Shown in pieces: positions 28,450 through 28,926 of a DNA stretch of 64,000 bases (the first letter of the stretch is position 1; each line of letters begins with the position of its first letter). A program made the translations under genes and the position numbers. The DNA is taken from the sequence record OQ718158.1; one strand, given 5' to 3'. The notes beneath the pieces were generated by a model. It was not told where the DNA came from and ran no database searches. It saw nothing but the letters and a program-made list of their open reading frames with translations. Source of the stretch: Escherichia phage vB_Ec-M-J.

Positions 28450-28926
28450 ATGATACATGAACACCTAGGTAATTTGTTTGAATTGTTCAACACTGTTACT
28501 GATGATCAAACCGCGTTGCATATAATCGCTCATGGTTGTAATGCACAGGGTAAGATGGGTTCGGGTTTTGCAAAAGAACTAAGAAATCGTTACCCGATGG
28601 CATATGATGATTATAAAGCATATGAAAAGGAAATGGGATTTCTAAGAACTGGACAAATTTCATATTCTTCTATAAGTGATGATTTGCTTATCGCAAACTG
28701 CATTACCCAACAGTACTATGGTAATGACGGTTCTAAGTATGTAAGTTATGATGCAATCGATGATGTTTTCAAACAACTCAAATACTTATGTAACGTTGAA
28801 CGCACTGTTCATGTACACTTCCCGAAAATTGGAGCCGATTTAGGCGGTGGTAACTGGAACGTTATCAAAGAAATCATTGACCACAGACTGGTTAATGCAG
28901 AAAAACACTTATACATTCTAAAATAA
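28450..28926 (+). CDS. macrodomain protein (TARG1/OARD1/DarG-type, Macro_2-like)
   Basis: 158 aa; IAHGCNAQGKMGSGFA and FPKIGADLGGGNW parallel the TARG1 motifs. Confidence 0.65.
   Translation: MIHEHLGNLFELFNTVTDDQTALHIIAHGCNAQGKMGSGFAKELRNRYPMAYDDYKAYEKEMGFLRTGQISYSSISDDLLIANCITQQYYGNDGSKYVSYDAIDDVFKQLKYLCNVERTVHVHFPKIGADLGGGNWNVIKEIIDHRLVNAEKHLYILK

Follow-up and report, generated by a model that had tools for sequence, protein, structure and literature searches.

A transposon screen in phage T4 identified tk.4 as the single gene that is conditionally required on Escherichia coli carrying DarTG2, and a clean tk.4 knockout was sensitised to this system. The authors named the gene adfM, for anti-DarT factor macrodomain (bioRxiv 10.1101/2025.11.20.689424). 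Gp104 of phage PhiKZ, which was independently named AdfM, strips DNA of DarT2 marks, and in Pseudomonas it is required against DarTG2 (PMC13309987). SCO6735, a macrodomain protein of Streptomyces coelicolor, outpaces DarG and TARG1 in clearing DarT-installed ADP-ribose from thymine in single-stranded DNA; it rescues both E. coli and S. coelicolor cells from DarT, and also clears Glu-linked ADP-ribose from proteins (PMC9411070). Here, we describe a macrodomain gene in a 64,000-nucleotide stretch of Escherichia phage vB_Ec-M-J (OQ718158.1), hereafter the window. On balance, its product appears to be an AdfM-type counter-defence protein with a Gln-type active site: a DarG-like ADP-ribosyl glycohydrolase, encoded as an orphan, that frees phage DNA of DarT2-type ADP-ribose on thymine.

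The gene (28450-28926, plus strand) is an ATG-initiated open reading frame (ORF) of 158 codons and a stop, and its product has 158 aa. The initial annotation, made from the sequence, had placed the gene at exactly these coordinates, and both of the motifs it quoted, IAHGCNAQGKMGSGFA and FPKIGADLGGGNW, are found in the product. The protein matches PHROG 335 at E 1.5e-45 (157 bits). It has 181 homologs in a set of 5.8 billion proteins, and in a library of 1.84 billion proteins 7586 representative clusters were matched at E<=1e-3, only 7 of them at E<=1e-30. Homologs of the gene occur in 1484 phage records. The gene is under purifying selection, with a dN/dS of 0.109 against the ortholog in the type phage 121Q. 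The PHROG match, the number of homologs, and this ratio place it far beyond chance. Two minus-strand ORFs (28496-28663 and 28809-28943) are short, lie inside the conserved macrodomain coding sequence, and were treated as incidental.

The source phage is an Asteriusvirus-type jumbo coliphage. Over positions 27000-30000, the window shares 99.6% identity with phages fEgEco12, WPEC3, and WPEC5; with 121Q the value is 86%. A 100%-identical vB_Ec-M-J protein has been deposited as "phosphatase", a label that goes back to an older annotation of the A1pp motif. In RefSeq, gp544, the ortholog in 121Q, appears as [quoted passage not shown]. The 121Q record does not list it as a virion component, and there is therefore no support for its packaging into the head. 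The genome papers on the Asteriusvirus phages Sharanji and fEgEco12 do not mention the macrodomain gene.

The protein has a macrodomain fold of the ALC1-like (TARG1-like) class. An AlphaFold2 model built from 60 homologs reached a predicted local distance difference test score (pLDDT) of 94.2 and a predicted template modelling score (pTM) of 0.91; its confidence falls to pLDDT 78 at residues 91-100. It shows the macro fold of three alpha/beta/alpha layers, in which two Gly-rich loops form the ADP-ribose cleft. The best structural matches of the model were BT1257 of Bacteroides thetaiotaomicron and SCO6735, followed by DarG, yeast Poa1p, and human TARG1 (OARD1), and both MacroD and viral macrodomains were clearly lower. 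Foldseek template modelling (TM) scores were 0.81-0.83 for BT1257, 0.76-0.80 for SCO6735, 0.73-0.85 for TARG1, and 0.72-0.78 for DarG. Among viral structures in BFVD, the second-best match was "tk.4" of Acinetobacter phage 133 (TM 0.84). When a profile of the family was compared with PDB sequences, BT1257 scored 94 bits, SCO6735 73, Poa1p 60, DarG 52-53, and TARG1 44, with ALC1 (19) and viral macrodomains (15-18) at the low end. For the protein itself, hhalign gave probabilities of 98.8 with the DarG macrodomain of T. aquaticus, 98.3 with PhiKZ gp104, and 97.8 with TARG1.

By profile and by structure, the protein is thus closer to TARG1, DarG, SCO6735, Poa1p, and ALC1 than to the MacroD, macroH2A, or PARG types. 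The initial annotation had proposed the class of TARG1 and DarG rather than MacroD, and had named profile or structure comparison with these two proteins as a check. Because BT1257/SCO6735, DarG, Poa1p, and TARG1 outscore MacroD and viral macrodomains, the assignment holds at the ALC1-like level, and the Foldseek and hhalign values for TARG1 and DarG agree with it. A single-sequence phmmer search gave no link between the protein and TARG1. The TARG1 sequence used in the alignments was verified against PDB. In a defence-system library and in NCBIfam, the sole matches were to DarG models and were weak (40 bits; 34 bits).

The active site is of a conserved Gln type. Residues were mapped by hhalign against T. 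aquaticus DarG, TARG1, and PhiKZ gp104 and by MAFFT with all reference proteins, with concordant results, and conservation was counted in 262 homologs aligned to the family hidden Markov model. H28, N31, Q87, and G128 align with His24, Asn27, Gln85, and Gly126 of SCO6735, and are conserved in 256, 261, 262, and 259 of these homologs, respectively. The features that define the subclass of SCO6735 and BT1257, namely Gln at the position of the catalytic Lys, a conserved Asn that holds it, and a conserved His before, are all present. Gln at this position is also found in Tk.4 and in FelixO1-like phage proteins (YTQF, YTQL), as it is in SCO6735 (Gln85) and BT1257. In SCO6735, the exchange Q85A abolished activity on DNA and protein substrates and N27S left the enzyme almost inactive; its authors proposed a water-mediated mechanism with no catalytic lysine (PMC9411070).

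The residues used by TARG1 and DarG are different. TARG1 Lys84 and DarG Lys80 (in the FPTK motif) both correspond to Q87, and TARG1 Asp125 corresponds to G132, so that the protein has neither the TARG1 dyad nor the catalytic Lys of DarG2. The initial annotation had held that absence of the catalytic residues would speak against its assignment and, taken literally, this absence is what the alignments show. The argument from the missing Lys is not valid, however, because the Gln-type enzymes SCO6735 (Gln85) and Tk.4 are active.

In the subfamily alignment of 60 sequences, the loop from Q87 up to Y100 is 12 residues long in 59. It has 8 residues in Tk.4 and TARG1 and 13-14 in SCO6735 and BT1257. 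A "mobile loop" has been described as characteristic of the SCO6735 subclass (PMC9411070), and the 12-residue loop may correspond to that of SCO6735 and BT1257. The subclass loop exceeds that of DarG and TARG1 by about five residues and carries lysines; one conserved lysine (K96) is present here, compared with two in SCO6735.

AdfM proteins are phage-encoded standalone macrodomains, and the vB_Ec-M-J protein is homologous to both T4 Tk.4 and PhiKZ gp104. Scores against PHROG 335 were 378 bits for a FelixO1-like protein and 220 for Tk.4, with gp104 (148) just below the vB_Ec-M-J protein. Tk.4 is likewise a standalone coliphage macrodomain (about 155 aa), with the common signature H-G-C-N ... 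T-Q ... P-x-I-G-A-x-[LI]-G-x-G-N-W and an acidic isoelectric point (pI) of about 6 (6.0 in the vB_Ec-M-J protein). The two proteins share 28% identity over 120 residues by BLASTP (E 2e-11). Unlike the vB_Ec-M-J protein, Tk.4 has a post-Gln loop that is four residues shorter and a Gly at the position of D130, and its gene lies in another neighbourhood, the vs and tk region. The anti-DarTG2 role of Tk.4 was shown genetically, whereas that of the vB_Ec-M-J protein would follow by homology.

SCO6735 and BT1257 represent the Gln-type subclass of ALC1-like macrodomains to which the vB_Ec-M-J protein also belongs, with about 24-28% identity. They differ in being cellular and strongly basic (pI 9-10), in a Gly instead of Asp at the position of SCO6735 G128, and in a loop that is one to two residues longer and carries a second lysine. 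PhiKZ gp104, itself an orphan antitoxin of a phage, and the DarG2 macrodomain resemble the protein in class, in PHROG 335 membership (gp104), and in the high hhalign probabilities (98.3-98.8). In contrast, they keep the catalytic Lys (FPTK) and, by pairwise BLAST, align with only the N-terminal 46 residues. In PhiKZ, a chimallivirus, gp104 is imported into the phage nucleus, while Asteriusvirus is not known to form one. The name AdfM was thus given independently to a Gln-type protein, Tk.4, and a Lys-type protein, gp104, which share PHROG 335 and differ in catalytic residues.

DarG2 further carries an extra DarT-binding C-terminal domain and has darT next to its gene. A true DarG antitoxin was rejected for this locus, as the protein is a single domain, the flanks hold small hypothetical ORFs and phage genes, and no darT lies beside it. 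A DarG equivalog was rejected at an NCBIfam DarG score of 33.6 bits (cut-off 250), and a TARG1 ortholog on the replacement of the Lys84/Asp125 dyad by Q87/G132. TARG1 also has Ser at the position of N31. Poa1p, an ADP-ribose-1''-phosphate phosphatase whose substrate is a small-molecule phosphate ester, differs in a Ser at the position of the Gln, a long insertion before the diphosphate loop, and the loop itself (PQINSGIAG). In the alignment, Poa1p H23 corresponds to the conserved H28 and Poa1p S30 to K35. The Poa1p residues considered (H23, S30, F152) are putative active-site residues, picked for mutation in PDB entries.

If the protein acts as Tk.4, gp104, and SCO6735 do, it would serve as an "orphan antitoxin" against DarT2-type DNA ADP-ribosyltransferases of the host. 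During infection, host DarT2 would use NAD+ to place ADP-ribose on thymine N3 of single-stranded phage DNA, and this modification would block replication and packaging of the phage. In the phage enzyme, the bound ADP-ribose would have the H28-G-C-N31...G37-S-G39 loop on one side and the P125...G134 diphosphate loop on the other. Q87, held by N31, would position the substrate and a water molecule. Cleavage of the N-glycosidic bond, by the mechanism proposed for SCO6735, would then yield unmodified DNA and free ADP-ribose. DarTG occurs in E. coli, an example being the system of enteropathogenic E. coli (EPEC) (PMC7003065).

This reading is supported because Gln85 and Asn27 of SCO6735 are needed on DarT-modified DNA and their equivalents are kept throughout the family of the phage protein. 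Catalytic activity, thymine-modified DNA as the main substrate, and an anti-DarTG2 phenotype are what we infer from the homologs. Reversal of DarTG-type immunity, which the initial annotation had suggested for a phage copy of the gene, may well apply here in view of the direct precedents in Tk.4, gp104, and SCO6735. The idea is no longer novel.

Several observations weigh against an eraser of thymine marks. The generic Pfam Macro model (PF01661) scored 21.7 bits (E 2.1e-4), just under its gathering cut-off of 22.0. The shortfall reflects the limited sensitivity of this general model; a precomputed PF01661 match exists for many homologs of the protein. The identity to Tk.4 is only 28%, and the role of the protein and its clade is predicted from homologs. 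The conserved neighbours (HPF, CCA enzyme, Nudix, glutaredoxin, and a PTH2-like ORF) suggest a link to RNA and translation rather than to DNA, and a homolog with 48% identity sits in an island for NAD/ADP-ribose metabolism and RNA repair. Macrodomains are also promiscuous: SCO6735 acts on uracil-linked ADP-ribose in RNA (PMC13036486) as well as on Glu-linked ADP-ribose in proteins (PMC9411070). The change G128E strongly impaired SCO6735, reportedly by stiffening of the loop and repulsion of DNA (PMC9411070). At this position the vB_Ec-M-J protein has Asp130 in place of the Gly found in TARG1, DarG, SCO6735, BT1257, and Tk.4, and it departs from the SCO6735 subclass in this respect. Among the 262 homologs, the residue is Gly in 176, Asp in 53, Ala in 12, Val in 8, and Glu in 3, and in the 60-sequence alignment Asp130 is confined to relatives with at least 46% identity. 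The objection is softened because Asp occurs naturally in these 53 homologs and the active PhiKZ AdfM has Ala there.

The gene neighbourhood and the promiscuity of the fold leave room for another main substrate, RNA or protein. The enzyme would then remove ADP-ribose from uracil or other positions of tRNA or mRNA, or from proteins, as part of a translation-maintenance module, the marks being placed by host toxins or by ADP-ribosyltransferases of the phage itself; we regard this as unlikely. It would fit the gene order HPF, CCA, Nudix, glutaredoxin (with YqeY in Xanthomonas phage XaC1), macrodomain, PTH2-like, neck, which is kept from the coliphage to the Xanthomonas phage, and the hydrolysis by SCO6735 of uracil-linked ADP-ribose on single-stranded RNA and of Glu-linked ADP-ribose on proteins. 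T4 tk.4, too, adjoins vs and regB. Yet these neighbours of Tk.4 are equally translation-flavoured, and its demonstrated phenotype is anti-DarTG2. SCO6735 is inactive on ADP-ribose at the 2'-OH of RNA and on guanine (PMC11833690), and CmdT-type marks on adenine N6 of RNA have so far been described as irreversible. No ADP-ribosyltransferase, NADAR, KptA/Tpt1, RNA ligase, or NAD salvage gene is annotated in about 235 kb of the 121Q RefSeq record (up to 150 kb and 229-314 kb), which is uninformative because most genes there are "hypothetical". A related possibility concerns the Asteriusvirus/Rak2-like clade as a whole. Its proteins carry Asp130 and an extended YGxDGxKYVSYDA loop that is strongly conserved, and the gene keeps a fixed place in a syntenic block with those for HPF, the CCA enzyme, Nudix, glutaredoxin, and the PTH2-like protein. 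These traits could mean that the clade has shifted from thymine in DNA to another ADP-ribosylated target (tRNA, mRNA, or a translation factor), for which we see only a small chance.

The "phosphatase" label in the databases would match a Poa1p-like processor of ADP-ribose-1''-phosphate, Appr>p-derived products, or O-acetyl-ADP-ribose, with such metabolites arising from the chemistry of tRNA repair or splicing or from NAD-consuming host toxins. Similarity to Poa1p and the NAD/RNA-repair island around one homolog are consistent with this role. It is nonetheless rather improbable, as the label stems from the A1pp motif annotation, Poa1p has Ser at the invariant Gln and a different diphosphate loop, and by every measure the phage protein is nearer to BT1257 and SCO6735. 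The lack of annotated KptA/Tpt1 or RNA ligase in the covered parts of 121Q is a weak negative in the same direction. Asp130 raises the further question of whether hydrolysis is disabled. The protein would then be a non-catalytic or weakly catalytic binder of ADP-ribose that sequesters Thoeris signals (His-ADPR, gcADPR) or ADP-ribosylated targets. Phage sponges for NAD-derived signals are common, and Asp130 stands where Gly-to-Glu impairs SCO6735. In TARG1, the equivalent exchange, G123E, abolishes ADP-ribose binding. Such a binder is very improbable, since the catalytic His, Asn, and Gln of SCO6735 are invariant or nearly so, the Asp130 clade included, a negative charge in the diphosphate loop should also weaken binding of the ADP-ribose ligand, and known Thoeris sponges have unrelated folds. 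Because macrodomains are promiscuous, removal of DarT2 marks from phage DNA and these other roles are not mutually exclusive.

Table 1. Features of the macrodomain gene and its surroundings in the window
Feature	Position	Strand	Remarks
Macrodomain coding sequence	28450..28926	+	Single-domain, 158 aa; ALC1-like/TARG1-like class; Gln-type active site
Substrate-binding loop IAHGCNAQGKMGSGFA, residues 26-41	28525..28572	+	From alignments; H28 and N31 align with SCO6735 His24 and Asn27
T86-Q87 and loop to Y100	28705..28749	+	Q87 at the catalytic-Lys position of TARG1 K84, DarG K80, and PhiKZ AdfM
Diphosphate-binding loop FPKIGADLGGGNW, residues 124-136	28819..28857	+	From alignments; D130 at nt 28837-28839
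Shine-Dalgarno GGAG	28440..28443	+	Six nt 5' of the ATG; read straight from the sequence
10-bp GC-containing hairpin followed by TCTTTTC	28409..28432	+	17 nt before the start codon; from terminator scan
CCA-adding enzyme	25995-27110		Upstream neighbour in the window
Nudix hydrolase	27217..27630	+	Three genes upstream; Pfam NUDIX E 7.9e-12
Glutaredoxin	27620-27868		Upstream neighbour in the window

The CCA-adding enzyme, Nudix, and glutaredoxin genes that the initial annotation had listed as neighbours are present (Table 1). Its description of them as nucleotide-repair genes is less apt, and tRNA, nucleotide, and redox genes would be a better term. Genes for a ribosome hibernation factor and, possibly, a PTH2-like protein belong to the conserved block as well. 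This block spans about 24021-30697 in the window, 67-6698 in 121Q, and 131-7315 in XaC1 (positions in the stretches compared), and comprises genes for lysozyme, an HPF/RaiA-like factor, the CCA enzyme, Nudix, glutaredoxin (plus YqeY in XaC1), the macrodomain, a PTH2-like ORF, and a gp13-like neck protein. It looks like a module for translation and tRNA maintenance just upstream of the tail genes. XaC1 shares the order lysozyme, HPF, CCA, Nudix, glutaredoxin and, further on, macrodomain, two small ORFs, PTH2-like ORF, neck, dNMP kinase, and sheath; its macrodomain protein is 46% identical to that of vB_Ec-M-J. Synteny of the gene is thus kept across the Rak2/121Q-like jumbo lineage as far as XaC1, and this common gene order suggests that the gene was inherited vertically in the two lineages compared. 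The relative position of Nudix is also kept in XaC1. A succession of Macro and then Nudix has been considered before (PMC7824862) and, by analogy, Nudix might dispose of the released ADP-ribose.

In some deposited records, the ORF at 29267-29644 (plus strand, 125 aa) carries the label "aminoacyl-/peptidyl-tRNA hydrolase". By itself it matches nothing in Pfam or PDB. With 30% identity (E 3e-15) to an XaC1 gene that has a weak PTH2 match, it may encode a divergent PTH2-type peptidyl-tRNA hydrolase. A very different setting is seen on a metagenome contig of an unrelated phage (JGI Ga0494884_001296, 1-10444), where the 48%-identity homolog lies amid NAMPT (NadV), cREC, a HAD protein, a metallophosphatase, YAcAr (SLOG), and a PNKP-like gene; this NAD+/ADP-ribose and RNA-repair neighbourhood is quite unlike the window. 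T4 tk.4 lies between vs and tk. As the homologs in this island and in T4 sit in different contexts, the wider family has no fixed neighbourhood.

The hairpin upstream of the macrodomain gene lies in an intergenic stretch of 58 nt with an RNA fold of -16 kcal/mol (z -4.2). Its stem is identical in 121Q and only the loop differs (ATTA vs ACCA). Judged from its form, the hairpin may be a terminator-like end of the cca-Nudix-glutaredoxin block or a stem in the 5' untranslated region. The next terminator-like site (30703-30733, plus strand) follows the neck gene. Strong hairpins with T-runs thus bracket the stretch from the macrodomain to the neck gene, and for this reason one transcript may cover the macrodomain gene, three small ORFs, and the gp13-like neck gene. 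The core octamer of T4 late promoters, TATAAATA, has zero copies on either strand of the window (1-64000), while 7.5 +/- 2.8 copies are expected from dinucleotide-preserving shuffles; the motif may be avoided. As it is missing from the whole window, the promoter scan does not inform on the timing of the macrodomain gene. A near-match, TATAAATT, occurs at about 28401-28408, just 5' of the hairpin. Matches resembling sigma-70 promoters were not enriched (32 found vs 25.7 expected).

Searches with ten reference macrodomains by tblastn found no second macrodomain gene in the window. No Rfam match at E<=1 was obtained between 25 and 32 kb, and no tRNA genes were found in the window. An ortholog of 121Q gp567 ("DprA-like DNA recombination-mediator protein", 88% identity) lies at 47076-47663 (plus strand) and adjoins thymidylate synthase (47669-48598). 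Its size and GGAxGxD motif suggest a SLOG/DprA-type nucleotide-binding domain, a family that has been linked to the sensing of NAD and ADP-ribose derivatives in phages (PMC9503650). Outside the window, 121Q carries a striking paralog array of about 15 tandem minus-strand genes annotated as "regulator of chromosome condensation (RCC1-like)" (117089-131255).

About 56% of jumbo phages have been reported to carry macro domains (PMC9503650). The gene described here is a real but largely expected accessory counter-defence gene, and its product, judging by sequence comparison, is probably a fairly divergent member of the known AdfM-like family. The macro-domain annotation was already known, and work from late 2025 and 2026 has tied the family to evasion of DarTG2 in two phage systems. 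What is added is that the protein is of the Gln type and not of the Lys type, exactly where the two published "AdfM" proteins differ, and that the Asteriusvirus clade has an Asp at the very position that is usually mutated to make such enzymes inactive. For enzymology, this natural Gly/Asp polymorphism at a "dead"-mutant position is a cheap and informative target. If the clade has instead turned to another target, the gene would belong to a phage module for "translation-apparatus repair" against an RNA- or ribosome-directed ADP-ribosyltransferase defence for which there is as yet no matched eraser. Several Asteriusvirus phages are under characterisation for therapy against pathogenic E. coli. 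If removal of DarT2 marks from phage DNA is indeed the role of the protein, Asteriusvirus jumbo phages carry a ready-made DarTG2 antidote, which would help to foresee how far their host range extends among DarTG2-positive strains, EPEC for example.

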